Shown piece by piece: positions 21,971-45,521 of a stretch of 64,000 bases of DNA. How positions within the stretch are numbered: the first letter of the stretch is position 1; the number at the start of each line of letters is the position of its first letter. Both the position numbers and the translations under genes were made by a program. This DNA is from Candidatus Woesearchaeota archaeon UBA525 (GTDB taxonomy: Archaea > Nanobdellota > Nanobdellia > Woesearchaeales > UBA525): positions 898-64,897 of the forward strand of contig DAGG01000029.1 of assembly GCA_002498125.1 (NCBI GenBank). Reading direction: 5' to 3'. A model generated the notes under the pieces. That model worked only from the letters and a program-made list of their open reading frames with translations. It made no database searches and was not told where the DNA came from.

Positions 21971-22333
21971 CTACGTCGCCTTGGCGATGGCATAGACTTC
22001 GCCGGTATCGGGCCTGAGATATGCTAAGACTCTCGTGTTAAGGATACTGCCGTGACCGCCCATCTCCCTGACAAACTCATCGATTGCCTGCGAATTCCGG
22101 AACGTGAACCCCTTACGTTTCTTAGTCTCGTGGTCTTCGATGTCAAACCTGAGATCGAGGTAATCCTTCATCATCATAGTCTCGCGGATGACGGCGGTGC
22201 GTGCCTCGAGTTTCTTCTCCGAATACAAGGTCACTGGATTTTGATTCCCGTCGTCTTCGTGCGTATTAACGAAGTAGACATTGCTGCAGAGCGCTGGATC
22301 GAAGCCGTAGATAAACGGCATTGGAGGATTCAT
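21971..22333 (-). CDS. Hypothetical protein, last gene of the surface operon
   Basis: Its ATG overlaps the TGA of the upstream 946-aa gene (ATGA). The start is at MNPPMPFIYG. Confidence 0.4.
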   Translation of the reverse strand: MNPPMPFIYGFDPALCSNVYFVNTHEDDGNQNPVTLYSEKKLEARTAVIRETMMMKDYLDLRFDIEDHETKKRKGFTFRNSQAIDEFVREMGGHGSILNTRVLAYLRPDTGEVYAIAKAT

Positions 22334-25170
22334 ATCCCCCCTTCGAACGGCCTGCACATCTTGCATGGCACAAGACCTGCATTCACTGCCTCACGCTTGC
22401 TTGAGTAAGCGATACGCTTATGGCGCGGGATACGGCGGGCGACCATGCAGTATGGAGTGTGCACTGTGTTACCGTCCTTGCCACCGAGGTAGATGACCTC
22501 GTTCGGCTTCATGCCCGGCACAGAGAGCACATGCGGTGCAGGTGGCTGCGCTCCAACGGCGATGTTCACCGTCTGTCCACCGCCACGGAAGTCACGTATG
22601 ACTGTGCCGCGGTCAGTGCTATGGTCAGGGCCACGGATGGTCTCGACCTGGCGTCCACGTACAGGGACTATCGCGCGCGAGCGGTTCGACGTGCGAACAA
22701 CGTTGCGCTCAGGAGCACGGGCGACTATCCTGCCGATACGAGATTTACGCGCAGTAGTCTTACGCGGGGTCTTAGTAGTTTTAGTAGCAGTCTTAGTCGT
22801 AGTCTTGGCCTTGCGCACTGCCTTACGCGTCTTGCGTGTAGCGGGCACAATGACAAGAGTATTGTCAGCGAACGGCTTCTGTCTGTACTCCTTCACTGTG
22901 AGCACGATGAGGAACATCACGAGCAAGAGCAGGATAAGCTCGAAGACCACGATGTAGGAACACCATGCCTCGAGGCACTGACCGAAGGTCCAGACCTTGA
23001 CAGGGATGACCCGCACGATGAACACCGGCGAATCGGTGATACCGCCCTTGGCGTCGCTCGCTGTCACAACCATCGTGTTCTCGCCCGCGAAGTTGCGGTC
23101 AGGAACGAGCGTGAGCATGGAACCCTCAAGCTGCGCGCGCACGTCGCTTGGCTGTGTGATCGCATAGCTGAGAATGTCCTGGTCAGGATCCTCGAAATAC
23201 TGCTCGAGGTCGATGGTGCGTTCGGTGTTCTGGTACAGCTCTATTACCGTCGACACAGTCGTGTCCGCGACGCGCTCATAGCGCATCTCTGCGCTAGGCG
23301 GCCGCAGGAGCAGCATCGAAAGCATGAGCAGGACTGCGCCTGCAATGAGCGCAAACTTGATGAGTGCGAGCGTCTTAGGCGCCACTCCCTGCGCGAGGAA
23401 GGGATATCCTGCGTAGATTGCGATGAGCAATACTACTGCTGCGATGAGCAGTAGCGCGAGCAGGAGGACAAGCCATGCGCAGAACGTGAAGCTCGCGAGG
23501 AACGCGCCGAGCCACTCCAGGAAGCGGATGAGGAAATTGTCATCCTGGAGCTCGATGCCGACTGATTCCACGTAAGGTATGCTCTGCGTGGTGAATGTCG
23601 GCAGGACGATGTATCGTCCCCGCTCCTGCGTCGTCAGGTTCTCGAGCGGGATGATATGGATTGCGCGCTGATCTCCAGGCTGGAGCGTGATTTCCTGCTC
23701 CTGCACTGTGAAGAGCGTGCTCTCTGTCTCGATGGTGTAGACGCCGCCTTCGCTACCGGTGTGCTTCACGATGACCGGGATGACGGTCGCGTCATCCTTG
23801 ATCGATATCTCATCATCGTCGATTTGCACCATGTGGCAAGTGCGCTGCGTCTGGCTGTTGAATGTGACTGGCGCGCTCGCATTCACTTGCGGCTGGCCGG
23901 CAGGCCATACGCGCACGACCGCAGTGTGCTCCGCGTCTGTGCATGGCAGCGTCACGCGTAGTGGTACGTTGATGTTCTGCCGCGGCTCTACGCGGATTGA
24001 TGTCTCGTCGAGGGTGAAGATGCTCGGTCCCTCGACCTGGAGCTGGAAGACCTGACTGCGGTCGCCATCGTTGCGGACGTTGACGTAGAGGGTCTTGGCG
24101 CCGCAGCATGCGGTGAGTGGAGTAGTCAGTGTGACCTCAGGCTCGCTGCGGATCTCGAGCGCTGGAGCATAGCAGTTGGCCACATTGAGCGTGACATCAC
24201 GCTGCTTGCTCACGCCGCCGTAGCGGTCGTTCGATGAGATCGTCATCTCGTACTCTCCGACTGCAGGGTTGTACACAGCAAGCGTGGCGTTGCGCTCCTC
24301 TCCCGAGGCAAGCTCGAGGGAGTTGTCGAACGTAACGAAGTGCGGCGCATCGAGGTCCATGTAGACCACGTCTGACGCCGGAGCGTCATTGCGCACTGGG
24401 ACCGCTATGCGGGTATCAGTCCGAGCGCATACATCGATGCTCGTCGGGAGGTCTATGCTGTAGCCGTACTCGTTGGTGATCGTGATATCGCGCCAGACAG
24501 TGGTCCCATCGCCGCTCTTGCCTGCGAGGATGAAGGGTACTGTACGCGTGCCGTGCTCTGTGCAAGCGAAGCTGTAGATGACCTCCTGAGTGAACGACTC
24601 TCCCGGCAGGAGGCGGAACTCTGTGTCCTCAGCTTCGGGCTCGTACTGGCCGAACGAGAGGAGATAGTCCTCAGGGAATGTGCCGATGTTGCGAGCAGTG
24701 ACCTCGAAAGTGGCCGGGTCGCACAGACCGACGGTCTGTTTTGTCGGCGCAACGTCGAGCGCCGCAGTCTGGCATGCGTCGACGCGTATCGAGCGCTCGA
24801 TGCTTCTTGTGCGGCCGTAGCTGTTCGTGACAACTACATCATATGGGTGCGTTCCGCGGACGCTGCAGCTGTCCTCGACGTAGATGAGGACCTCTTCGAA
24901 GTGCTTGGGCGCAAGCTGGAAGTCCGGTCTCACGACCTTGATCCCACCAGGGTATGTGCTACGCACCTGGACGTGGAAGTCAGCGTAGAACTGGCCGACG
25001 TTCTCGACGATGATACGGTCGACCTTGGTCTCGCACGCGCAGAGCTTGAGCTGCTCGTTGTTAGGCGAAGCGGCGGTGAAGTCATTCGTGTACTTGTTCA
25101 CGATGAGCTCTGCGCTCACGCCTGTGCTGAGTATGAGGAACGCGATTATGAGTGTGAGTGCGCGGTTCAT
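22330..25170 (-). CDS. Large surface protein: signal peptide, CARDB-like repeats, TM region, juxtamembrane Ig-like domain, K/T-rich tail and C-terminal Ada-type Zn-binding domain
   Basis: Signal MNRALTLIIAFLILSTGVSA. Repeated beta-rich modules (e.g. VNVRNDGDRSQVFQLQVEG). Hydrophobic block around aa 545-615 and a second TM near aa 720. KTTKT-rich basic segment. C-terminal HTPYCMVARRIPRHKRIAYSSKREAVNAGLVPCKMCRP matches the Ada_Zn_binding consensus. Confidence 0.7.
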   Translation of the reverse strand: MNRALTLIIAFLILSTGVSAELIVNKYTNDFTAASPNNEQLKLCACETKVDRIIVENVGQFYADFHVQVRSTYPGGIKVVRPDFQLAPKHFEEVLIYVEDSCSVRGTHPYDVVVTNSYGRTRSIERSIRVDACQTAALDVAPTKQTVGLCDPATFEVTARNIGTFPEDYLLSFGQYEPEAEDTEFRLLPGESFTQEVIYSFACTEHGTRTVPFILAGKSGDGTTVWRDITITNEYGYSIDLPTSIDVCARTDTRIAVPVRNDAPASDVVYMDLDAPHFVTFDNSLELASGEERNATLAVYNPAVGEYEMTISSNDRYGGVSKQRDVTLNVANCYAPALEIRSEPEVTLTTPLTACCGAKTLYVNVRNDGDRSQVFQLQVEGPSIFTLDETSIRVEPRQNINVPLRVTLPCTDAEHTAVVRVWPAGQPQVNASAPVTFNSQTQRTCHMVQIDDDEISIKDDATVIPVIVKHTGSEGGVYTIETESTLFTVQEQEITLQPGDQRAIHIIPLENLTTQERGRYIVLPTFTTQSIPYVESVGIELQDDNFLIRFLEWLGAFLASFTFCAWLVLLLALLLIAAVVLLIAIYAGYPFLAQGVAPKTLALIKFALIAGAVLLMLSMLLLRPPSAEMRYERVADTTVSTVIELYQNTERTIDLEQYFEDPDQDILSYAITQPSDVRAQLEGSMLTLVPDRNFAGENTMVVTASDAKGGITDSPVFIVRVIPVKVWTFGQCLEAWCSYIVVFELILLLLVMFLIVLTVKEYRQKPFADNTLVIVPATRKTRKAVRKAKTTTKTATKTTKTPRKTTARKSRIGRIVARAPERNVVRTSNRSRAIVPVRGRQVETIRGPDHSTDRGTVIRDFRGGGQTVNIAVGAQPPAPHVLSVPGMKPNEVIYLGGKDGNTVHTPYCMVARRIPRHKRIAYSSKREAVNAGLVPCKMCRPFEGGI

Positions 25171-25485: not shown

Positions 25486-26565
25486 CTAATAATATGTCTC
25501 TACCTTCTTCTCTGCATCCTCGACAGCCACCCTCTTGCGGGGCTTGTGTGGAGTTTCGGAGATGCGGGCGCTATCAGTGGAATCGTGGCGATCGTGCCTG
25601 CCACTCTTGCGAAGCACAATCACTATCGCGATGATGATGAGCGCGAGCAGGATGATGATGAAGATGCCTTGCAGCACCCAGAGGCCTGGGAAAACGGCAG
25701 GCTCTGCGCGCGGCGAGCGCACGTAGACGTCAATCGGAACGACGGTAGTTTGGTCGCCGCTCGTGATAGTGAGCTGGATGGTATAGGGACCGGCGTTGCC
25801 GCCTTCGATGTAGAGGTATACCTCATCGCCGTGGCCTGCCACGAGCGTCATGCGCGGAGCAGGGTCGATGCGCCAGGTGCCTGGAGACTGCACACCCAGG
25901 TCATAAGTCGCGCTGCTGTCGCCGAGATTCATGATAGATATAGGGATTATCGCGTTCTCGCCGTGATCGACATCGATCCTATTGAAGACATTGATGACTG
26001 TCGTGTCGAGCGGGCCGTCAGCTGTACCGCAGGCGTCGCTGCTCTGCACGATGATGCGCTCGCGCTGTGATTCGAGCACGCCGCCGGAGCTTGCGGTGAC
26101 TGAGAGGTCATACGCCTTGGCTCTCGCGCACTTCGGGATGCGCAGCCAGAAGTCAACGACTGCCATCTCGCCCTGAGGAATGTACGCTACGCGCTGCTCT
26201 GCGTCGATTCCCAGTTCTTTGTTCGCCACGCGCACAGTGATTTCACTGATGGGCCCTGGCTGACTATTGATCATACGGACTGTGAGGTGCGCTATCTCGC
26301 CCTGCTTGAGGTTCCCGTCAGGATTGACTATGATCTCCTCAAGGAGGCTGTCACAGGCGTCGCCAATCCGATCGCGGTCCATGTCGCGTTGCTCGCTATT
26401 GGCTATACCTGGGCAGTTGTCGAACTCATCGATGATACCATCGCAGTCGAAATCAGGCGCGGGCCCGAAGTTCGTCATGACCATGCATGCAGCATGGCCT
26501 GGAGCCGCAATAAGGCTTATACTAGCGATGAGAACTGCCAGGAACGTGCCCACGATCCATTTCAT
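25486..26565 (-). CDS. Surface protein with thrombospondin type-3-like Ca-binding repeat, CARDB-like domain and C-terminal TM anchor
   Basis: Signal peptide. DFDCDGIIDEFDNCPGIANSEQRDMDRDRIGDACD (TSP3-like). C-terminal hydrophobic helix plus basic tail. Paralog of 34985..36016. Confidence 0.65.
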   Translation of the reverse strand: MKWIVGTFLAVLIASISLIAAPGHAACMVMTNFGPAPDFDCDGIIDEFDNCPGIANSEQRDMDRDRIGDACDSLLEEIIVNPDGNLKQGEIAHLTVRMINSQPGPISEITVRVANKELGIDAEQRVAYIPQGEMAVVDFWLRIPKCARAKAYDLSVTASSGGVLESQRERIIVQSSDACGTADGPLDTTVINVFNRIDVDHGENAIIPISIMNLGDSSATYDLGVQSPGTWRIDPAPRMTLVAGHGDEVYLYIEGGNAGPYTIQLTITSGDQTTVVPIDVYVRSPRAEPAVFPGLWVLQGIFIIILLALIIIAIVIVLRKSGRHDRHDSTDSARISETPHKPRKRVAVEDAEKKVETYY

Positions 26566-34984: not shown

Positions 34985-36016
34985 TTATTTAAAAGCCTTG
35001 TGGTTGCGCGTCGAGCGGTGCGTCAGGAACGCCGCCGCGAGGAGCACGAGCAGGACGAAGATCACAAATCCCCAGAAGAGCTGCCGTCCTGGCGCTGGAG
35101 GAGGAGCCACTGGTTCGGGGATGTTCGCGAGCAGCAGTATCTGCTTGGCGTCGTCGCGTGCCTGGACTGTGAATGTGAAGCTGCGCTTGCCTTCGATGCC
35201 TGGGCGCGCCCATACCTGTATTGCGCCGTCGCGCGCTTCGCCTGCAGGAATCACGATGACCGTACCAGGATTGATCTCAGCGTAGCCCCACTCATCGAGG
35301 CCTGTCGCGGAGAGCACGTATGCCCTACTCTCTGATTGCTTGTTATGGATGGTGAATGGGTAGAGTGCTCCTGTCGGGCCGACATCCTGCACCTCAAGGA
35401 TGTTCACTACCGTCGTGTCGCCGCCAGTCTCGGCATCGCATGTGCCGCTGGAGACTACTGGTGCCCGGACCGCCTGGGAGAAGTATTCTTTCTGTCCCGG
35501 CGCGAATGGGTACTCTGCGATGATTGCGAAGTCGGTCATCCTGGTCGCTGCGCACTCAGGCACGCGCACGATGAGCTCGCGTTTGGTGCGCTCGCCCGGC
35601 TGGATGACTGAGATGCGCTCGTTCGCCGCGACGCCGAGGCGTGGCACGTCGAGCTTGACCTCGACGTTGCGCATCGGGTAGGCGCGCGAGTTCATGAGCC
35701 AGACCGACACCACGAGGCTGCGGCCTTGCATCGGACTCTCTGGCTCGAAACGGATCTCATCGATGACCAGGTCACACGCGTCGCCGATGCCGTTGCGGTC
35801 ACGGTCTACCTGGTCTGGATTGTTCGTGAGCGGGCAGTTGTCGAACGGGTCTGGTGTGCGGTCGCAGTCGACATCGCGCAGCGCGCCCTCGTTCGTGGAA
35901 ATGACGCAGCCACTGAAGCCTGCCGGAGGCAGTTCCGCATATGCAGGCACTACTAATGATAAGAGTATAAGGATGGCCGCCAGGTTCTTGCCCCAGTGCA
36001 TAGGCTTGGAGTCCAC
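34985..36016 (-). CDS. Surface protein with TSP3-like Ca-binding repeat, CARDB-like domain and C-terminal TM anchor (paralog of 25486..26565)
   Basis: Signal peptide. DVDCDRTPDPFDNCPLTNNPDQVDRDRNGIGDACD. C-terminal FWGFVIFVLLVLLAAAFL anchor plus basic tail. Confidence 0.65.
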   Translation of the reverse strand: MDSKPMHWGKNLAAILILLSLVVPAYAELPPAGFSGCVISTNEGALRDVDCDRTPDPFDNCPLTNNPDQVDRDRNGIGDACDLVIDEIRFEPESPMQGRSLVVSVWLMNSRAYPMRNVEVKLDVPRLGVAANERISVIQPGERTKRELIVRVPECAATRMTDFAIIAEYPFAPGQKEYFSQAVRAPVVSSGTCDAETGGDTTVVNILEVQDVGPTGALYPFTIHNKQSESRAYVLSATGLDEWGYAEINPGTVIVIPAGEARDGAIQVWARPGIEGKRSFTFTVQARDDAKQILLLANIPEPVAPPPAPGRQLFWGFVIFVLLVLLAAAFLTHRSTRNHKAFK

Positions 36017-36219
36017 CCTGGACTATTTAAAGTTTCACACGGATGTCATCGCTATCTTCCCGGAGTGCTGCGGCGGGAGCACCAGTGCATTGTTTCAGCG
36101 CTCGCCTTGCGAGTTCGCTTCGCTCCTCGCTCTCGCGCTTCAGGAGATACGCCAAGGCAGCACCAGATTTAGTAATTGCATCTCTTATGAATAAGAAAAA
36201 TATAGAATCAGATATGTGT

Positions 36220-37977
36220 TCAGAACCGTATCTTTATCCCGCCGTAGATGGATTTGGAGTTCATCTCCTGCGTAAAGTCTGGGAGGACTATGTCGCGCTG
36301 CGTCTCGCCGTAGCGGATCTGCGGCCCGATGTCCACGCGTCCTGCGTTAATCATCCAGTCTGCGCCGACCTCCCATTCGTTCTGCACCTCGAGCTTTGCC
36401 CCCGCGATGTCCTCGCTCTCCTCTCCGAAGTGGTGTTTGTAGCTGCCGAAGAGGTCGAAGCTGTTCTCCTTGCCGAAAATAGTCATCGGGTTCTCCATAG
36501 TCAGCTGGCCAAAGGCCTTAGCTGCAGGGTTCTGGAATTTCACAGTCGCCGGATCACCAGGCCTGAAGTCTGGTGCGAAGGTGCGGTAGAACTCGTCGTG
36601 CACTTCGTAACCTGCGCCGACGCCGACGTGGCTCTTATCGAGATCGCCGATCATCGGACCGATGTAGATGCCTGCTGAGAGCGGGTCGAAGGCCTGCGTC
36701 ACGCCTGTCTTCGCAGTGTCGTTCTGTGTGATGCTCGCATCGATGTTCACGAACGGCTTGATGAAGAAATCAGTGAAGCTCTTCGTGACCTCAAGCTCGA
36801 GACCGGTTGTCTTGAGCTCATCAGCGAAGTACTGCTCGAAACGTGATGGAGCGAAGGTCTGCTGCTCGAGCTCTTTCATGAACGCCGTGATTGCGACAGC
36901 GAGGTCAGGCCTCTTGTACGCCGCCTCAAGTGCCATTGATGGACCCTCGAACTCCTGGAGGATATTAATAGTGTCACATGGCGCCTCGCAGTACTTGCTC
37001 TCGTTCGGAATGATAGTCCTGACATCCATGTTCGTCACATCGACGAGCGGAGTCAAGGACCACGGCTTTACACGGGGACGTTCAAATTCCACAGGTTGCG
37101 GGACTGGCGGCGGGACAAACACCTGCTCCGGCACGCAGTCAGGACACTCGATAGTACAGTCGCCAGTGCATACTTGTCCTGGCTTTAGTCCTGCTGTCCC
37201 GTCGCACTGCTCTCCTACCTGGTTGATAATCCCGTCGCCGCAGTAAGGCGCTGGTACCACAGGTGTAGGAGGGATGAGTTCCTGGACTGGCCGCTCGCAC
37301 GCGAGAAGCGTGAGGTCGAGGCCGTAGCTCGCGCATAGCTTCTTGTCAGGACCGCGCAGCACGACGAAGAGCTTCTCCTTCGTGAATATCGTGTCCTTGA
37401 CTTCATCATGCGTGATCACATAGTCCTTGACTGCTGCCCTGATGCGTGAGTCCTTTGACCATAGAGATACCTTATACCCCGCCTTCTTCTGCGCTGCAGT
37501 GAGTTTCGGCAGTCCTATCTCGAGCTTATCCTCGGGGTAGAGGCAGTACTCCTTGTTCGCTGTGAGGCGGTCGCACTCTCCAACGTCAACCTTGAACTGG
37601 TTGTACTGGCCATCTATGTATGTCGTAATCGGCGTGGGACCGATGAACTTGAGATTGGGGGGACAAGGGTTCTCGGCAGTGCAGTCCTCGAGCGTCCTTA
37701 CAGGAGTTGAGTTCTGGACTACTCGCACATTTAGCTTTGACGCGAGTGTCTCCTGCCGAGCAGGTTCCTTCTCGAACGAGAATCTCGCTGTGCTGTTCTG
37801 CACGACAGCGTTCTTCTCTGCGCGGATGAGCTCCACCTTCTCGCCCTTCTGCACTATCTTCGCGCCTGCGATGGGCGTTGGGGAGTGGGTCTGTGCCTGC
37901 AGCGGTTGCGTTTGCAACGCAGGGCTCAATGTCATTGAGATAAGAGAAGCGAGGGCTATGGTGGTGTTCGGTTTCAC
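36220..37977 (-). CDS. Secreted Cys-rich protein with beta-strand-rich C-terminal domain ending ...YGGIKIRF (OMP beta-barrel-like signature)
   Basis: N-terminal signal-like segment. CGDGIINQVGEQCDG...CTGDCTIECPDC Cys-rich module. The C-terminal ~250 aa show alternating hydrophobic/polar strands, are rich in G/Y/F/N, and end in a terminal Phe. Confidence 0.6.
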   Translation of the reverse strand: MKPNTTIALASLISMTLSPALQTQPLQAQTHSPTPIAGAKIVQKGEKVELIRAEKNAVVQNSTARFSFEKEPARQETLASKLNVRVVQNSTPVRTLEDCTAENPCPPNLKFIGPTPITTYIDGQYNQFKVDVGECDRLTANKEYCLYPEDKLEIGLPKLTAAQKKAGYKVSLWSKDSRIRAAVKDYVITHDEVKDTIFTKEKLFVVLRGPDKKLCASYGLDLTLLACERPVQELIPPTPVVPAPYCGDGIINQVGEQCDGTAGLKPGQVCTGDCTIECPDCVPEQVFVPPPVPQPVEFERPRVKPWSLTPLVDVTNMDVRTIIPNESKYCEAPCDTINILQEFEGPSMALEAAYKRPDLAVAITAFMKELEQQTFAPSRFEQYFADELKTTGLELEVTKSFTDFFIKPFVNIDASITQNDTAKTGVTQAFDPLSAGIYIGPMIGDLDKSHVGVGAGYEVHDEFYRTFAPDFRPGDPATVKFQNPAAKAFGQLTMENPMTIFGKENSFDLFGSYKHHFGEESEDIAGAKLEVQNEWEVGADWMINAGRVDIGPQIRYGETQRDIVLPDFTQEMNSKSIYGGIKIRF

Positions 37978-38092
37978 AGGGTTACCTCGGCCTCTGGAGT
38001 CAAATGTTCGCTATTTATGCATGAGTTGCGGACTGGCAAAAGAAGAGACTGAAAAATTGTCAGAAAAGAGATTGATAAGAGGAGGATGAAGA

Positions 38093-39796
38093 TTAGAAGC
38101 GGTAGTTGCCGAAGACACCGAGTCCGATGTCCGAGCTCTTGAAAGGGGTGCCATCGATGAAGGTGGAATCCTCCTCGCCGAACTTGACGCGGCCTGATAC
38201 GCCGAAGGGGTTCTTGCTCTCCGGGTTGAATATCCACTCCACGCCGGCCTCGCCGTTGAAGACGTAGGAGTCGTCGAGTATCTCCTTCCAGTTGGTCGCG
38301 CGCTGCGTCTGCGGAGCCATTACCCTGCCGGTGCCGAAGATGCGGACGTGATCATCTACAGTGTAGAGCTGGAACGACGCTTCACCTTTGAACATGCGCT
38401 CTGTGACACCGTCGCTGCGGCGGTCATTTGTCGTAGAGTTGTTCGGCCTGCCGAAGTTCATTCGCTGCGCGCCATATCCTGCCTTGATCTTCAGATGACT
38501 GCCGTCCTGGTAGCCGATCATGCCAATGAGATTGGCATAGCCGTCGACGCTCCTGTAGCGCATGACAGTATTGTCATCTGAAGGACCGCGCATACCAAGT
38601 CCCTCGCCGAACGTCACGCTCGAGTACGAGCCATCCAGACCAAGCCCGATGCGGGCCCGTGCGTGGCCAAACGTCTGCTCGTAGTTGAAACTCGGGCTGA
38701 ATGCCGTAATCGTGTTCTCGAGCGTGTTGTGGTAGCGGTTGCCTGTCCCGTTGTCACCGCGGCTCGATGCCGCCTGGATTGAGAAGAGCGTGTTGTCATC
38801 TGTGAACTTGAACTGCGCCATGAGCTGGGATCCACTATAGGTCTCCTCTTCGGGGATGAAGACCTCCTTGTTGTTGCGCGTCACCCAGTAGCCAGTCTGG
38901 AAATTGTGCTCGAACGATCCCAAGCCGAGGTTGAACTCCCTATTACCGGCGTTCCTGAGCGGCTTCTCGCGATGCCTACGCCACAGGGTGCGTTCTTCAC
39001 GTACAACGTCTGCCGGCACATCATCTCCTGCCGTCGCCTCTGCGACCACAGTGACTGTCTCAGAAGGGGTCCTCACCGTCGCCTCTGCCCGCGCTGCTGA
39101 GGAACTGCCCGTCGCTGTCGCCTCTGCGGAGACTTCAGTGACATAGTTGCAGTCGCGCGCGGTTATTGTCGCACCGATGTTGCGCGCGTCAACGCGTTTG
39201 CCATTCCTATCACGCAGGACGAGCGCAAAGTTCTCCTTAGGGAGCTTGAGTGTGTAAGTGTTATACGAACCGCTGGTATCGGTGTCGATTGTCTTGAAGT
39301 ACTGGACGTACTTGCGGTCATTGGCGCTGAGCGCGCCACTGCGGATCTCTACGCCATCAATGGCACCATTATCTACGAGCCAGCTGAACTTAGGTCTGCC
39401 TGCCATCTCGTAGCGGAGAGTATATCCTGCGCGCGCCTGCGCATCAGTGAGGTCCGGTAGCACGAGCTTTACCTGATCGCCAGGAGTGCAGAACCCGCCG
39501 ATTGTGCCCATGCCGTAATCGACGATGCGGTCGAGCGATGGATCACGTCTCTCGCGAATGACCTGTCGCGCAGGGGCCTCCTTGACTTTTCTTACGACCT
39601 GTTTCTCAACAGGAGCGACAGGTGTGCACGGCGATACTGCCGCCTCGCCGCAAACTGGCTTGGCTTCGCGCACGAATGGTCTGACAATCGCTTGCTTTGC
39701 GTCATGCATCCACTGACGGAGTCCTGCCTCTGCGTTAGGCGCAGCGAGGCTCAAGAGCCCGGCCGCGATGATCGCTTTCGTGAGATTCTTGTTCAT
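38093..39796 (-). CDS. Secreted protein, paralog of 36220..37977, C-terminal beta-rich domain ending ...LGVFGNYRF
   Basis: Sec signal MNKNLTKAIIAAGLLSLAAPNAEA. Shares the motif LP.LT.AQ..AGY with its paralog. The C-terminal ~300 aa have an alternating pattern and a terminal aromatic-R-F. Confidence 0.6.
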   Translation of the reverse strand: MNKNLTKAIIAAGLLSLAAPNAEAGLRQWMHDAKQAIVRPFVREAKPVCGEAAVSPCTPVAPVEKQVVRKVKEAPARQVIRERRDPSLDRIVDYGMGTIGGFCTPGDQVKLVLPDLTDAQARAGYTLRYEMAGRPKFSWLVDNGAIDGVEIRSGALSANDRKYVQYFKTIDTDTSGSYNTYTLKLPKENFALVLRDRNGKRVDARNIGATITARDCNYVTEVSAEATATGSSSAARAEATVRTPSETVTVVAEATAGDDVPADVVREERTLWRRHREKPLRNAGNREFNLGLGSFEHNFQTGYWVTRNNKEVFIPEEETYSGSQLMAQFKFTDDNTLFSIQAASSRGDNGTGNRYHNTLENTITAFSPSFNYEQTFGHARARIGLGLDGSYSSVTFGEGLGMRGPSDDNTVMRYRSVDGYANLIGMIGYQDGSHLKIKAGYGAQRMNFGRPNNSTTNDRRSDGVTERMFKGEASFQLYTVDDHVRIFGTGRVMAPQTQRATNWKEILDDSYVFNGEAGVEWIFNPESKNPFGVSGRVKFGEEDSTFIDGTPFKSSDIGLGVFGNYRF

Positions 39797-39804
39797 GTGT
39801 TCAC

Positions 39805-42384
39805 CTAGTAATTAAACTGGACATCATTCTCGAGGAGCTTCCCTATCACGCTCTCTTCCATGGCCTGTGCCTGGAACGCGTACTCATACATGATACGTTC
39901 GAAGAGAGGCTTGTCATCATTGTGTATCGCGGTCTTCGCCCTACCTATGCGCATGATCTGGTCGCGATCATAGCCATCCGGCGTGCCGCAGGTCTTCTTC
40001 TCGTCGCAGTACTTATGCAGGTCCTGGACGAGAACCAGGCCTCTCTCCACATACTGCATCCTCTCAGCATCTGAGGAGAATCGCTTGTTCTGGATACCAT
40101 CGAACATCACTTTCACTTCTCCGATGAGCCTCTTCTCCTCAGGAGAGAGAGTGTACTCGATGCCCTGATTATCACGGCCGGTCGTACCCTGCGGGCCGTT
40201 GTACTCAGATGTTACAGGTGCTTCAGCAGTCGTCTTCGGACTGTAATCGAATATAGGCGGTGACGTAGAGCTCTCCGTAGGAGCGACCTTGACAGACGCG
40301 GCTGCCACGGAATTGTCCGCGCTTGCGTACGCATGCACGTCTACGACGGGCTTCGGCTGCTCGTACACGATCTCATCGAGCGTCGTGCTCGGGATATCCC
40401 ATGAAGGGTCGTCACCAGGAACGTTGTACGAAACCGGCGGCTGCGCTGGAGGCTCCAGAATCTCAGGGACGCGCGCGTCCGGAATCGGAGACTGCTTGTA
40501 CTCCAATGGCTGCGCTGCAGGAGTCCTGTCAGGAACTGGAGGAGCTTTGTACTCCGGCACAGGCTCCGATGCTGCAGGCGCTTTGCGCTCAGGCACCGAT
40601 TCCTGAGAAGATGAGTTATACACTGGAGCGGGCGACGTGGCCAGCGCAGTGACGATGAACCGTATAGGCACCTTCACGCTCTGCACGATCGTGCCGTCAC
40701 TATCACGGGCAGCGATGTCGTACACGAGGATCTTATCCTGCTTTAACTCGCCGTAGGATATGGTGAGCTGACCATCGATGGCGCTCGCCAGCGCGATGTC
40801 CTCTGCAGTGTTGAACGTCGGCGAGAGCGATGCGCTCACTGCCCGCTTGTCTTGCGGCAGATCGAGCGTGAACGAATCCCCGGCGCTCTTGAGGTAGACC
40901 GTGGTTATCGCATGCTTGCTCCACAATCCTTCTAGCTCTGTCGCCATCACTCCGCGCACCTTAACGTTCGTGCCTTCGAGCGTGTTGTCGAGTGTGAAGA
41001 CGGGGTCGCCGCGGGGAAGTCCCTTTTGCCTTGTGCTGAGCGTGATGCGCTGCGCGATGCCGTCAGAGATGACAACCGCTGCAGGGTTGAGTAGGTAGTC
41101 GCCTGATGTGTTGAACCTGCTCTTGTACACAGGCTTCGATGCGCCGTTATACTCAACAGGAGGTTCTGCTCGCGCAGGAGACGTGGTGGAAGGCACGTCT
41201 TTCGACGGGCTTGTGGAAGCAGCGCTTGCAGGCGTACCGCTTGCTGACGAGTTGCTTGCCGATGCACCGGAAGGAGTATAGGACGCTGAGTCAGCACCTG
41301 CTGATGCGCCGGCGGCCGCTCCCGAAGCTGTGCCGCCATCGATGATTTTCTCGAGTGGAGGAGTGAGAAGATCAGGTGACGCTGAGGAAGGTTCTGCACG
41401 CGGCAGAGGTGTGATGGTCTCGGCCGGAGTGGTCTGCGTGAGCGCAGTGTCGAGTGCCGTACCGAAAGCAGTATCAGTCGGTGATGGAGAATATGGATTG
41501 GGTGCAGTGCTTGTGAGCACTGTATCGGTGAGTGTGGTATCTGTGATTGCTGTATCGAGCGCGGTGCTTGCTGGCGCGCGACGGTAGCCAGACATCGTTC
41601 CCGTAGGGACGACGCTCTTGTCTTCCGGCGTGGCGCGCTCTAATCCGCTGGCAGGGCGCTGGACCTGACGGCTCACTTCAGCCCTGCGCTGCTCGTACAC
41701 AACAGATCTCTTCTGGAGTTCGGCAATGCCGTAGCCTGCGGCGATGAAGCCAGCTCCAATAGCAGCACCGACGAGGACAATCTTGCCTTTCCTCTTCAAA
41801 CCATCGTTGCTGAAATCCGGCTTATGCACCCAGTCGGGCTTGTGCACGTACAACCACTCGCGCGAACTGCGCGTCCGCTCCTTGAGGACATTGCCGGTGT
41901 TGGAGAATGCGTTCCTAGTGCCTGCGCGCATCTTCTCGTCGGCATTGTCCATCGTGATACGGTACTTTGAATATGCATGCTTCGCCCCTGCGCCTGTTGC
42001 GATAAATGGTTTCTTCATGGCAGAACTGTAACGCTTCAACCGCCCCGGCGATTTCTCTGCTTCGCCAACAGGCGTTTCAGGAAGCGCTACTCCGGCAGCC
42101 GCTACATCAGAGAGGTGGTCTTCAGCAGTCGGTTCAGGCGTGCCTGCAATCTCATCGAGACGCTCATCTATCGCCTTATCGAGATCCTGGTCCTCAATGC
42201 GCACCCGCCGCGTCTCGAACTCATCAAGTGTCTCAGCCACAGAGTTCTCCTGTGCAGAAGCACCAGTATGCTCAGACACCATATCTGATTCTGAGAGTTG
42301 CTCAATGTCCTCATTTCTAGGATTCGTAGGATTGTCGTCAGGCATATGCGTCCTCAAGTCTGGCGCGGTCCATTCTTCTCCCAT
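39805..42384 (-). CDS. Giant single-pass membrane surface protein with acidic N-terminal (cytoplasmic) region, S/T/P/A-rich stalk and Pro-rich PxEYK-type repeats
   Basis: One TM helix (KIVLVGAAIGAGFIAAGYGIAEL) at about aa 195-217. Long low-complexity Ser/Thr/Ala/Pro region, a likely O-glycosylated stalk. Globular C-terminal domain. TATA-like gtgatttaaataag sits 27-34 nt upstream. Confidence 0.6.
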   Translation of the reverse strand: MGEEWTAPDLRTHMPDDNPTNPRNEDIEQLSESDMVSEHTGASAQENSVAETLDEFETRRVRIEDQDLDKAIDERLDEIAGTPEPTAEDHLSDVAAAGVALPETPVGEAEKSPGRLKRYSSAMKKPFIATGAGAKHAYSKYRITMDNADEKMRAGTRNAFSNTGNVLKERTRSSREWLYVHKPDWVHKPDFSNDGLKRKGKIVLVGAAIGAGFIAAGYGIAELQKRSVVYEQRRAEVSRQVQRPASGLERATPEDKSVVPTGTMSGYRRAPASTALDTAITDTTLTDTVLTSTAPNPYSPSPTDTAFGTALDTALTQTTPAETITPLPRAEPSSASPDLLTPPLEKIIDGGTASGAAAGASAGADSASYTPSGASASNSSASGTPASAASTSPSKDVPSTTSPARAEPPVEYNGASKPVYKSRFNTSGDYLLNPAAVVISDGIAQRITLSTRQKGLPRGDPVFTLDNTLEGTNVKVRGVMATELEGLWSKHAITTVYLKSAGDSFTLDLPQDKRAVSASLSPTFNTAEDIALASAIDGQLTISYGELKQDKILVYDIAARDSDGTIVQSVKVPIRFIVTALATSPAPVYNSSSQESVPERKAPAASEPVPEYKAPPVPDRTPAAQPLEYKQSPIPDARVPEILEPPAQPPVSYNVPGDDPSWDIPSTTLDEIVYEQPKPVVDVHAYASADNSVAAASVKVAPTESSTSPPIFDYSPKTTAEAPVTSEYNGPQGTTGRDNQGIEYTLSPEEKRLIGEVKVMFDGIQNKRFSSDAERMQYVERGLVLVQDLHKYCDEKKTCGTPDGYDRDQIMRIGRAKTAIHNDDKPLFERIMYEYAFQAQAMEESVIGKLLENDVQFNY

Positions 42385-42513
42385 GTCCCCGCTTGGGAAT
42401 GTGGAGGCGAGCGTGATTTAAATAAGTTTCTGAATGTAACCACTGTGCGGTGAATACTATTTTCCCTCCACTGAGACTTCGATGATGAGAACTAATATCT
42501 ATATAGAAAATAA

Positions 42514-43908
42514 ATGATTGTTGCGTATACGGAGAGCATTTATATATGCTGCTGGACGGAAATCATAGGTGAGAGCTTGACGTACGACATCGTGGTGGGA
42601 AGGAGCAAGCACGATAAGGAGAAGTACGGCACGCAGGGTACCATTTTCTTAGGTAAGCACTATGTCACCATGGGACAGACCGTGGCGCTCAGCAACAAGG
42701 TCTTCTTGGACATGATCCGCAGCCACGTCATATTCGTCTGCGGCAAGCGCGGAGGGGGAAAGTCATACACCATGGGCGTGATTGCCGAAGGCATGGCAGA
42801 CCTGCCCGATAGCATCAGGAAGAACCTGAGCATCATCATGCTCGACACCATGGGCATCTACTGGACCATGAAGTACCCGAACATCAAAGAGAAGGAGCTC
42901 CTCAGCAGCTGGACCATGGAGCCAAAGAGCTCCGACATCACCATATTCACGCCAAAAGGTTTCTACGACAAGGCCAAAGAAGAAGGCATCCCGACAGACA
43001 GGCCGTTCGCAATAAAACCGAGCGAACTCCTAGGCAGCGACTGGGTAACGACATTCAGCCTCGACCCGAACAGCGACGTCGGCGTCCTCATCGAGCGCAC
43101 AATCCACAACCTGCAGGAACGTAAGGAACAAGGAGAGGACTTCAGCCTCAGAGACATACTCTCAATGATTGAACAGGACAAGGAGACGGCGGCTAACACG
43201 CGCGCTGCGGCGCGCAACCACTTCATCGCTGCCCAAGGATGGGGCATCTTCTCAGACCAGGGAACACCGCTCTCGGAGCTCGCGCAACCAGGACAGATCA
43301 CAGTACTCGACCTCTCCGCCTACTCGACACAGGAGAACGGCTGGGCAGTGAAGTCACTCGTCACAGGTCTCGTGAGCCAGAAACTCTTTCTCGAGCGCAT
43401 GACTGCGCGCAAGACTGAGGAGTTCCGCCAGGTCCACCGTGACGTGAACTACCTTGCTGAGGATGACGACCTGCAGCAGGAGATGCCGCTCGTCTGGCTC
43501 GTCATCGACGAAGCGCACGAGTTCCTGCCGAACCAGGGCAAGACGCTCGCGAGCGACCCGCTCATCACCATCCTACGAGAAGGCCGCCAGCCTGGCATCA
43601 GCCTCATCCTCGCGAGCCAACAGCCAGGCAAGATTCACACTGATGTGATGACTCAGGCGGACGTCGTGATCAGCCACCGTATCACCGCAAAGCTCGACAC
43701 CGATGCGCTTGGGATGCTCATGCAGTCATACCTACGCGTCGGCCTGGACAAACTCTTAGATGGATTGCCCCGCACATCGGGAGCTGCACTCATCCTCGAC
43801 GACAACAACGAGAAGATGTTCCCTATCCAGATCAGGCCGCGCTTCACCTGGCACGGCGGCGAGTCGCCCACAGCGCTCAAAAAAGAGAAAGAGCTCTTCG
43901 AGTTCTAG
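42514..43908 (+). CDS. HerA/FtsK-superfamily P-loop ATPase (DUF87/HerA-like central domain)
   Basis: Walker A GKRGGGKSYT and Walker B VWLVIDEAHEF. A short N-terminal barrel-like segment (DIVVGRS...GTIFLG). The start may be an internal TTG/GTG (42577-42595), because a TATA-like box lies immediately upstream of the ATG at 42514. Confidence 0.7.
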   Translation: MIVAYTESIYICCWTEIIGESLTYDIVVGRSKHDKEKYGTQGTIFLGKHYVTMGQTVALSNKVFLDMIRSHVIFVCGKRGGGKSYTMGVIAEGMADLPDSIRKNLSIIMLDTMGIYWTMKYPNIKEKELLSSWTMEPKSSDITIFTPKGFYDKAKEEGIPTDRPFAIKPSELLGSDWVTTFSLDPNSDVGVLIERTIHNLQERKEQGEDFSLRDILSMIEQDKETAANTRAAARNHFIAAQGWGIFSDQGTPLSELAQPGQITVLDLSAYSTQENGWAVKSLVTGLVSQKLFLERMTARKTEEFRQVHRDVNYLAEDDDLQQEMPLVWLVIDEAHEFLPNQGKTLASDPLITILREGRQPGISLILASQQPGKIHTDVMTQADVVISHRITAKLDTDALGMLMQSYLRVGLDKLLDGLPRTSGAALILDDNNEKMFPIQIRPRFTWHGGESPTALKKEKELFEF

Positions 43909-43953
43909 ATATCTGCCAGAAATGTTTTAACCGTATCCAACCCTCCGGAAATA

Positions 43954-44286
43954 ATGGAGTATGCGGGGCAGTACACAGTCACAGCGAGAGCGCATACGCG
44001 GCCGTACGCGAAACTATGCACGCTCAATGAGGAAATCACGAGGTTGTATCCTGGCGCGCACATCACTATCCGCGAAGCGGACACCATGACGGGCTGCGAC
44101 AGCATCCTCAACCTCATGTTCAGCCAGATCGGCACCCGGCTCGGCACCGAGATAGAGGTCGTGGTGCGCGGTGAGTACGACTATAGGACGCTGGAGGGCA
44201 TTGCGGATCGGGTGGGCGCGGTATTCGCGCAGAAGGACGTCCTCGCTGAGCAGACTGGCATGATGCTAGGGATCAGACGCAAATAG
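43954..44286 (+). CDS. HPr-like phosphocarrier-fold small protein (putative)
   Basis: YTVTARAHTRPYAKL aligns with the HPr active-site region (V)TI.N..GLH(T/A)RPA. Downstream ITIREADTM..CDSILNLM..IG..LGTEIEVVVRGEYDYRTLEGIADRV follows the HPr pattern. The active-site His is conserved. Confidence 0.4.
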   Translation: MEYAGQYTVTARAHTRPYAKLCTLNEEITRLYPGAHITIREADTMTGCDSILNLMFSQIGTRLGTEIEVVVRGEYDYRTLEGIADRVGAVFAQKDVLAEQTGMMLGIRRK

Positions 44287-45293: not shown

Positions 45294-45521
45294 TTACCTG
45301 CGCTTGTAATGGACTGCTAGGACTTCGAGGTCGTCCGGATCGGTGGTGGCGTTGCTCATGCTCACCATGCTTGCGATGAACATGATGATGAAGAGCGCCA
45401 TGAACGCAGCCCCCCACTTGAAGTATCCCAGAGAACGGTAAACTAGGAAGTATGCTACGAAGAAGCCAATGATGCTCGTGATCATCCACTCGTGCGGTAA
45501 CGGAGCTGCCTTGAAAGCCAC
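45294..45521 (-). CDS. Small membrane protein (2 TM)
   Basis: 75 aa with two hydrophobic helices. Directly upstream of the CBS gene. Confidence 0.4.
   Translation of the reverse strand: MAFKAAPLPHEWMITSIIGFFVAYFLVYRSLGYFKWGAAFMALFIIMFIASMVSMSNATTDPDDLEVLAVHYKRR

Follow-up and report, generated by a model that had tools for sequence, protein, structure and literature searches.

The HerA-clade ATPase, the HPr-like protein and the giant membrane protein encoded side by side in this stretch of DNA are, taken as a whole, best explained as chance neighbours, and probably do not make up one system. This view draws on what was observed directly about the homology and fold of the proteins, where their genes occur, which genes lie beside them, and their failure to co-occur across loci. 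The window, meaning the whole 64-kb stretch of DNA that was analysed, contains the three open reading frames where a first-pass annotation had placed them, at 39805-42384 (minus strand), 42514-43908 (plus) and 43954-44286 (plus), and the motifs quoted there, GKRGGGKSYT, VWLVIDEAHEF and AHTRPYA, all occur within them. The features discussed below are as follows.

39805..42384, minus strand: orphan protein of 859 aa, comprising a probably cytoplasmic N-terminal part, a single transmembrane helix, a S/T/A/P-rich stalk, Pro-rich P..Y[NK] repeats and a globular C-terminal part (open reading frame, hydropathy, composition)
42385..42576, no strand: region between the divergent genes, containing a TATA-like box (read from the sequence)
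42577..43908, plus strand: HerA-clade (DUF87) P-loop ATPase, probably 443 aa (464 aa from ATG 42514) (DUF87 match, orthologue alignment, Foldseek)
43954..44286, plus strand: 110-aa divergent HPr-fold protein (family profile, AF2 model, Foldseek)
45294..45521, minus strand: protein of 75 aa, predicted to span the membrane twice and syntenic with the ATPase (tblastn)

Gene neighbourhoods

The first-pass annotation had suggested that the divergent pair and the HPr-like gene behave as a DNA-transfer or defence unit, an idea that finds no echo in the neighbourhoods surveyed around homologues of the ATPase and of the HPr-like protein, where the genes do not co-occur. The HPr-like protein is absent from all 85 other ATPase loci, whether searched by tblastn or with the family HMM at E<=10, and the ATPase is absent from the flanks of the five other HPr-like contexts, which are mutually unrelated and have no neighbours in common. 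The 859-aa protein likewise gave no tblastn match in the 85 other ATPase loci. Here the HPr-like gene occupies a slot between the ATPase and a CBS gene, and the content of this slot differs among close relatives; in the closest, whose ATPases are 77-82% identical, the ATPase is followed by a NUDIX gene or by unrelated small open reading frames.

The HerA-clade ATPase

The ATPase reading frame does run for 464 aa from ATG 42514, as first described, but alignment with 19 orthologues together with the DNA itself indicates that translation probably begins at the in-frame TTG 42577, giving a protein of 443 aa. With this start the divergent intergenic region measures ~192 bp, and the shared region of 130 bp proposed earlier has to be extended. 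A TATA-like box, TTTATATA, lies at 42539-42546, ~31 bp upstream of the probable start; the ATPase seems to possess its own promoter and a leaderless TTG start.

The initial assignment of the protein to the HerA/DUF87 type is borne out by PF01935 (DUF87, HerA central domain), which matches residues 64-274 at 39.7 bits against a threshold of 23.2, and by the predicted fold, for which a Foldseek comparison was run; on these two grounds we place the ATPase in the HerA clade. Walker A (GKRGGGKS), Walker B (VIDEAHEF), EGRQPG and SQQPGK are invariant across the 20 aligned orthologues. At least one orthologue carries an intein within the Walker A loop (GGGK|intein|SY). By fold it comes closest to the HerA structures 9x1l and 4d2i (E ~1e-11; T. 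kodakarensis and S. solfataricus), after which come anti-phage HerA, DndH and TdpA. The AF2 model is mediocre (pLDDT 63, with the C-terminal third below 50), making fine fold distinctions weak, and it is with this limit that the Foldseek ranking is to be read, in which every match down to rank 38 is HerA, DndH-C or TdpA, the first VirB4 comes in at rank 39, and the 50 matches listed include no FtsK.

Canonical HerA, the helicase of HerA-NurA end resection, shares with the ATPase the RecA-like core, a Walker A of the form GxxGxGKS, a Walker B of the form hhhhDEAH, the EGR(K/Q)xG and (S/T)Q(Q/R)P motifs, and Pfam DUF87. The ATPase is nevertheless not a canonical HerA, since it lacks a full HAS-barrel, has no NurA neighbour and is only 17-18% identical to the solved HerA structures. 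It is also shorter, at 443 aa compared with 500-580 aa, and HerA profiles align with the C-terminal core only, scoring far below their cut-offs (NCBIfam NF040819, 46 bits against 970; NF040937, 37.6 bits against 800). Counted from the TTG, the P-loop strand is preceded by only ~50 residues, which form three short strands, and the protein may be described as a RecA fold in which a vestigial N-terminal beta element would replace the HAS-barrel. That no NurA lies near the ATPase, as noted at the outset, was upheld by a domain scan that took in every plausible gene of at least 250 aa within the 64 kb, which found no NurA domain in the scanned open reading frames; NurA is missing from the recurrent neighbour clusters of the ATPase too, as is any nuclease from those of the 85 other loci. 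Mre11/Rad50 was found neither in the window nor among the recurrent ATPase neighbours. The HerA-NurA reading of the ATPase was rejected.

The ATPases of DNA transfer, CedB/CedD, TraB, VirB4 and FtsK, belong to the same FtsK-HerA superfamily. Unlike them, the ATPase has neither a transmembrane segment nor a conserved channel partner; the TraB, EccC and CedD models match it weakly and over part of its length (TraB 18 bits; CedD 28.6 bits, where the cut-off is 600), FtsK reaches only E >0.2 when the PDB is searched by sequence, and in the fold comparison VirB4 comes after HerA. The reading of the ATPase as part of Ced/Ted import was rejected, and so was that of a viral packaging ATPase, for which the PHROG matches are partial only.

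An orthologue of the ATPase is present in at least 577 species-level (GTDB) genomes of Woesearchaeota and Nanoarchaeota, and the best 80 matches all come from DPANN-type MAGs. Compared within the same genomes, its mean pairwise identity (~62%) is close to that of the primase DnaG (66%) and above those of Tyr/TrpRS (55%) and presenilin (49%). Among the 85 other loci the recurrent neighbours are a membrane-bound PpiC/SurA-type isomerase (47 loci), DnaG (31) and Tyr/TrpRS (29), together with presenilin, RIO1 and a KH protein. The 75-aa protein encoded downstream on the minus strand has tblastn matches in 47 of the 85 loci and belongs to a cluster spanning 39 of them; its synteny with the ATPase is conserved, although the two are not co-transcribed. 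Searches of the literature for DUF87 together with DPANN, and for HerA with DPANN, found nothing on this family.

These data suggest that the ATPase gene of the window is one copy of a core-like gene that DPANN archaea of the Woesearchaeota/Nanoarchaeota type inherit vertically. Judging from all HerA/FtsK relatives characterised so far, the protein would most likely assemble into a hexameric ring that pumps double-stranded DNA at the expense of ATP, both the hexamer and the DNA substrate being most likely on that ground, and it probably acts on the chromosome. The degree of conservation and the housekeeping synteny point to a role in chromosome maintenance, be it segregation, repair or fork processing, rather than in defence or conjugation.

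A defence role is the alternative that these observations bear on most directly. On this view the ATPase would serve as translocase in a defence or ‘capture’ system of the mad8, BRC or HerA-effector type, in which the variable neighbours, the HPr-like gene and the giant protein among them, would be exchangeable effectors or sensors. The PADLOC mad8 profile of MADS matches the ATPase over its full length (profile positions 4-312 of 314, E 4e-18), several anti-phage HerA profiles match as well, and the gene content beside the ATPase does differ among close relatives. This profile and a protein encoded on a Haloplanus plasmid are the nearest full-length relatives outside DPANN, which leaves a defence ancestry or role some small probability. 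The Haloplanus protein aligns with 90% of the ATPase query at 33% identity, shares the motifs DxMGIYWTM, DEAHxF and EGRQPG and a C-terminal RPRxxxHGG, and adjoins a BrxC/D-like ATPase, a GNAT protein, a QueF-like protein, a PD-(D/E)XK nuclease and a helicase, in a layout like that of the BRC system (PMC12839542). The MADS preprint gives no specific information on mad8. Defence genes of this kind are, however, typically patchy and fast-evolving. In contrast to the short HerA/FtsK translocases of MADS (mad8) and BRC (PMC12839542), the ATPase has the distribution and DnaG-like conservation of a core gene and sits in a housekeeping context, in stable synteny with primase, aminoacyl-tRNA synthetase, RIO1 and presenilin. 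No nuclease, Sir2, PglZ, BrxC or methylase occurs among its recurrent neighbours, and a PADLOC scan of the adjoining proteins was negative. We consider a present role in defence very unlikely.

The HPr-like protein

The 110-aa protein had been singled out for a sequence that follows the HPr pattern around a conserved histidine, and a small protein lacking the HPr fold had been named as grounds for giving up this reading; structure prediction followed by Foldseek gave an HPr fold with the active-site His retained. The Pfam match by itself is sub-threshold (PTS-HPr, PF00381, 20.1 bits against 23), as is that to TIGR01003 (19.7 bits against a cut-off of 47.9), and it is the family profile combined with the predicted fold that makes the assignment convincing. 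A word-index search returned only the protein itself, while an exhaustive phmmer search of 1.84 billion proteins recovered 10 small HPr-like homologues, two of which, among the 10 scanned, exceed the Pfam threshold at 28.8 and 24.6 bits. Searched against the PDB, the family profile has HPr, NPr or Crh as its best 28 matches (top E 2e-5). The AF2 model (pLDDT 81.6) has the order beta-alpha-beta-beta-alpha-beta-alpha, with elements E2-8, H16-31, E36-41, H51-57, E66-72 and H77-92, and its best 31 Foldseek matches are again all HPr, NPr or Crh (target TM-score 0.76 at most, rmsd 2.2-3.1 A). Taken together, profile and model show that the protein genuinely has the HPr fold, within a family that is both rare and divergent. 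The possibility that the frame is non-coding was rejected, given a family with an invariant His, a confidently predicted fold and a GC3 of 0.78, like that of the adjoining genes.

His14, in the sequence AHTRP, aligns with His15 of NPr and HPr and is invariant in the 12 family members; Pro17 is kept in at least 90% of the family alignment. As in HPr, NPr and Crh, the histidine stands in the beta1-alpha1 loop within an H-x-R-P motif and a serine, Ser49, lies at the N-terminus of helix 2, at the position of HPr Ser46. The family differs from these proteins in its greater length (98-124 aa compared with 85-90 aa) and in its conserved MEYxGxY start and GEYxxxxLxxCAxRVGxxF end.

The family contigs look archaeal, and a PTS is reported to be uncommon in DPANN (PMC10266531); a literature search on HPr with DPANN found nothing on this family beyond that rarity. 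The remark that the protein occurs without a PTS fits this locus, the domain scan having found no PTS domain among the scanned open reading frames of the window, and EI, EII and HprK were found neither in these frames nor in the flanks of the five other family contexts; a PTS, a PEP-utilising enzyme or a NurA may be encoded outside the 64 kb. In one context a PEP synthase gene lies one or two genes upstream of the HPr-like gene. With a phosphorylatable His and the H-x-R-P loop both preserved, the protein is most likely a small phospho-histidine carrier or regulator, presumably phosphorylated at His14, and its phosphoryl group would come from a source that is not the Enzyme I of a classical PTS.

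Whether such a protein could act on its neighbour here can be judged from the adjacency itself. The ATPase and HPr-like genes are co-directional and separated by 45 bp with no predicted terminator, so that co-transcription is possible in this organism. HPr is also known to regulate enzymes outside the PTS, such as glycogen phosphorylase, with which it is found in PDB 9s8b and 9s8k. One could therefore conceive of a lineage-specific functional pair in which the HPr-like protein controls the motor, perhaps according to whether it is phosphorylated, tying DNA pumping to energy or carbon status. It would then stand in for a partner of ~100 aa that is encoded after the ATPase, on the same strand, in 32 of the 85 other loci and was not found in the 64-kb window. 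This companion, which has no Pfam, NCBIfam, PHROG or significant PDB match, is all-helical as judged by sequence and shares no homology with the HPr-like protein. The adjacency is seen in one of 86 ATPase loci and one of six HPr-like contexts, and the closest relatives fill the same slot with NUDIX or other frames, all of which makes a dedicated pair highly improbable.

The 859-aa membrane protein

The architecture first described for the giant protein stands as regards its single transmembrane helix (at ~202-221 by hydropathy), its stalk (S/T/A/P making up 66% of residues 301-400) and its Pro-rich repeats (20% Pro in residues 601-700, with six P..Y[NK] motifs). Its N-terminal domain is not acidic throughout ~190 aa as had been stated: only residues 1-100 are acidic (28% D+E), whereas residues 101-200 are basic (21% K+R), and a basic stretch directly before the helix fits an N-in topology. 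The protein has no Pfam, NCBIfam, PADLOC or PHROG match, and when 5.8 billion clusters were searched by word index it was the sole match to itself. Its gene, the last of four co-directional genes for secreted or membrane proteins, has a GC3 of 0.62 compared with 0.71-0.80 in the adjoining genes. It is probably a fast-evolving, lineage-specific surface protein.

It is barely credible that the ATPase powers DNA import or export in the manner of Ced, Ted or TdtA with the divergent membrane protein as its envelope-spanning part: DPANN archaea need hosts, a divergent membrane or secreted protein is found at most loci (an upstream gene on the opposite strand in 62 of 82, several of them very large) and a CedD model gives a weak partial match, but the usual divergent partner is the PpiC/SurA-type isomerase (40 loci) and not a channel protein, the giant protein has one transmembrane helix only and no homologues, the CedD match covers just the Walker B region, and no conserved polytopic membrane protein resembling CedA lies nearby.

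Implications

If the adjacency is accidental, as we think probable, the three genes have no importance as a three-gene system, and the interest of the locus shifts to its separate parts, which offer modest leads: a core motor that awaits characterisation, and an HPr-like protein near which no PTS gene was found. A HerA-clade ATPase that lacks the HAS-barrel, occurs in hundreds of Woesearchaeota/Nanoarchaeota genomes and is conserved about as well as DnaG makes a clearly delimited item of archaeal ‘dark matter’. The rare HPr-fold family, whose active-site His is intact and near which no PTS gene was found, draws attention to the questions of its phosphoryl donor and its regulatory target. Two bolder readings, which we hold to be unlikely, would make the HPr-like family a PTS-independent phospho-histidine relay of DPANN-like archaea and the ATPase family an essential, hitherto undescribed DNA-handling motor specific to Woesearchaeota and Nanoarchaeota. 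Such a relay may receive its phosphoryl group from an enzyme that uses PEP, PEP synthase for example, and in this lineage may feed the metabolic state of the cell into the adjacent ATPase. The motor itself may usually work together with the ~100-aa helical protein.

Gene arrangement and start of the ATPase

The domain identifications proposed for this divergent gene pair and the small gene beside it are supported; the functional unit proposed from them is not. All three ORFs were recovered where the first-pass annotation had placed them, together with the motifs GKRGGGKSYT, VWLVIDEAHEF and AHTRPYA:

39805-42384, minus strand: giant protein, 859 aa
42514-43908, plus strand: HerA/DUF87-type ATPase, 464 aa counted from the upstream start
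43954-44286, plus strand: HPr-like protein, 110 aa

The ATPase is probably shorter than this call. All 19 orthologues aligned start with "M(x)YDIV", corresponding to an in-frame TTG at 42577, so that the ORF stands while its size would become 443 aa and the divergent spacer approximately 192 bp, in place of the 464 aa and 130 bp first reported. A TATA-like box, TTTATATA, can be read at 42539-42546, ahead of this TTG.

Identity and conservation of the ATPase

The Pfam DUF87 ("HerA central domain") model matches the ATPase with 39.7 bits against a threshold of 23.2, in agreement with its original assignment. The NCBIfam models for HerA, anti-phage HerA, CedD, EccC and TraB cover only the Walker B/sensor part and fall far under their cut-offs, and the match to the PADLOC mad8 profile is full-length (E 4e-18). 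Searching the PDB by sequence and by profile gave HerA-type chains only, with FtsK at E >0.2. Based on a shallow alignment, the AF2 model reached pLDDT 63, its C-terminal third being poor; Foldseek placed HerA from T. kodakarensis (9x1l) and S. solfataricus (4d2i) first (E ~1e-11, 17-18% identity), followed by anti-phage HerA, DndH-C and TdpA, with VirB4 first appearing at rank 39. A full HAS-barrel is lacking, since the P-loop strand begins after only ~50 residues, and on sequence and predicted structure the protein is a HerA-clade ATPase rather than a canonical HerA.

The homologues number more than 6000; among the best 120, identity is 62-82% and length 411-578 aa (mostly ~435-450 aa), and those with names are labelled Woesearchaeota, Nanoarchaeota or DPANN. 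With each GTDB species represented by one genome, at least 577 genomes encode a relative; the best 80 of these are all DPANN-type MAGs (55-75% identity). Mean pairwise identity in shared genomes is ~62% for the ATPase, compared with 66% for DnaG primase, 55% for Tyr/TrpRS, 49% for presenilin, 35% for the CBS protein and 31% for the PpiC isomerase. In the orthologue P0042 an intein interrupts the Walker A loop, sitting between GGGK and SY; a second orthologue, P0040, looks similar and has an intein-splicing Pfam domain, its N-terminus being truncated. Three genomes have a second ATPase copy nearby, directly downstream of the first at loci L044 and L047 and several kb away at L055.

Neighbors of the ATPase were clustered across 85 loci, and the pattern is that of a housekeeping gene, with no recurrent nuclease.

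Recurrent neighbors of the ATPase (85 loci)
Membrane-anchored PpiC/SurA-type isomerase: 47 loci, divergent, directly upstream in 40
75-aa protein with two predicted TM helices: 39-47 loci, convergent; window copy at 45294-45521, minus strand
~100-aa helical protein of no known family: 32 loci, co-directional, downstream
DnaG primase: 31 loci
Tyr/TrpRS: 29 loci
Presenilin: 19-27 loci
CBS protein, RIO1 and KH protein: fewer loci

The 75-aa protein, among the most conserved of these neighbors and always on the opposite strand, matched no known family. The ~100-aa helical protein, often 15-80 bp downstream of the ATPase (32/85 loci, e.g., L018:3098-3406), is a candidate partner. It is well conserved (57% mean identity), with the pattern MAFSKSFPKT..YPxWEEV..L..EEE ... 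KRASH (alignment A4), gave no Pfam, NCBIfam, PHROG or significant PDB match, and has no copy in the window.

The nearest full-length relative found outside DPANN (33% identity over 90% of the query) is a 389-aa protein on plasmid NZ_CP098519.1 of Haloplanus sp. HW8-1 (region 109101-124246, locus L096). Its gene overlaps the stop codon of an uncharacterised 380-aa gene and lies beside genes for a 1363-aa BrxC/D-like ATPase, a GNAT, a QueF-like protein, a PD-(D/E)XK nuclease and a helicase, a layout resembling the "BRC" capture system (PMC12839542). The region is probably a BRC-type defence island, which indicates that the ATPase fold family serves in defence too. In contrast, the woesearchaeal copies have no BRC-like surroundings.

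A divergent HPr-fold protein

Alone, the 110-aa protein falls slightly under the HPr thresholds, and a word-index search found only itself. Exhaustive phmmer against 1.84 billion representatives gave ten small homologues (98-124 aa, 29-39% identity), two of which pass the Pfam HPr threshold. His14 does not vary across the family alignment and Pro17 hardly does; the end GEY...L..CA.RVG..F is conserved. The 28 best PDB matches of the family profile are HPr, NPr or Crh, headed by NPr 5t17 (E 2e-5), with the family histidine aligned to His15. The AF2 model (pLDDT 81.6) has the HPr order beta-alpha-beta-beta-alpha-beta-alpha, with His14 in the loop right ahead of helix 1 and Ser49 at the start of helix 2; its 31 best Foldseek matches in the PDB are all HPr, NPr or Crh, with target TM-scores up to 0.76. 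Since family profile, model and Foldseek all give HPr, the HPr likeness first noted is upheld, and the protein is, by homology and prediction, a real but divergent HPr-fold protein. With a GC3 of 0.78, the gene matches its neighbors.

As initially observed, neither NurA nor a PTS was found in the scanned ORFs of the 64-kb window, nor were HprK or PEP-utilising domains; PTS are reported to be uncommon in DPANN, with exceptions among nanohaloarchaea only (PMC10266531).

The giant protein and other surface proteins

Hydropathy and composition bear out the architecture described for the giant protein: a single helix at ~202-221, an S/T/A/P-rich stretch (66% of residues 301-400) and a proline-rich part (20% of residues 601-700), with six P..Y[NK] motifs. 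The acidic N-terminal domain of ~190 aa is correct for residues 1-100 only, 101-200 being basic; an N-in topology is consistent with the basic stretch right before the helix. No homologue was found in a word-index search of 5.8 billion clusters, and the protein is probably a fast-evolving surface protein.

It is the last in a co-directional run of four secreted or membrane proteins (34985-42384). Two of these are orphans with signal-peptide-like N-termini:

36220-37977, minus strand: 585 aa, ending ...YGGIKIRF
38093-39796, minus strand: 567 aa, ending ...GVFGNYRF

These ends resemble the aromatic beta-signal of bacterial outer-membrane beta-barrels, which is odd in an archaeon. The two are weak paralogues sharing "LPxLTxAQxxAGY" (BLASTP E 0.001), gave no Pfam or PDB match (the 567-aa protein has a single sub-threshold NCBIfam match) and were not seen in 85 related loci. 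Surface proteins are abundant in the window, with further secreted or membrane proteins at 22330-25170, 25486-26565 and 34985-36016 (all minus strand) that carry thrombospondin type-3 repeats, a FixG_C-type Ig-like or a Big_9 domain. The remaining genes are ordinary housekeeping ones, among them class I aminoacyl-tRNA synthetase, Obg-like GTPase, NFACT, RsmB, CofD, ABC transporters and glycosyltransferases.

Linkage of the three genes and proposed roles

A neighborhood survey of homologs gave no co-occurrence and does not support the proposed unit. At the 85 other ATPase loci, tblastn detected no giant protein and no HPr-like protein; a family HMM (E<=10) did not find the latter either. HPr-like homologues occupy five other contexts, none with the ATPase and no two with neighbors in common: TatD and DUF5654; two uncharacterised proteins; an operon of uncharacterised proteins; PEP synthase upstream and SUF downstream; and AGOG and PHP.

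The closest relatives keep the backbone S4 ... FixG_C/TSP_3 ... ATPase ... CBS ... RNA-binding ... presenilin and differ in the slot after the ATPase.

Slot after the ATPase in the closest relatives
This window: HPr-like gene, 110 aa
P0003 contig (ATPase 82% identical): NUDIX gene
P0004 contig (80%): ORFs of 117, 117 and 97 aa
Locus L001 (77%): ORFs of 156 and 113 aa, other strand

The divergent upstream gene varies too (590 aa, 807 aa, or a 253-aa trypsin-like protease) and has no Pfam match in the two closest relatives. The adjacency is therefore one arrangement of a variable region, and the evidence says that the three genes are not linked. The ATPase and HPr-like genes may nevertheless be co-transcribed in UBA525, given a gap of 45 bp and no predicted terminator.

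Judged by all HerA/FtsK relatives that have been characterised, the ATPase is most likely a hexameric ring that translocates double-stranded DNA. Its conservation and synteny favor a role in chromosome maintenance over the defence or DNA transfer first suggested. The HPr-like protein would most likely carry or sense a phosphoryl group on His14. In one HPr-like context (L092:4764-8312 and L093:217-3765), a 763-aa PEP synthase (PPDK_N, PEP-utilizers, PEP-utilizers_C) is encoded upstream, one or two genes away from the HPr-like gene, only a hint that such an enzyme could be a non-PTS phosphoryl donor. Each of the three components is a variant of something already known, and the significance of the region is modest overall.
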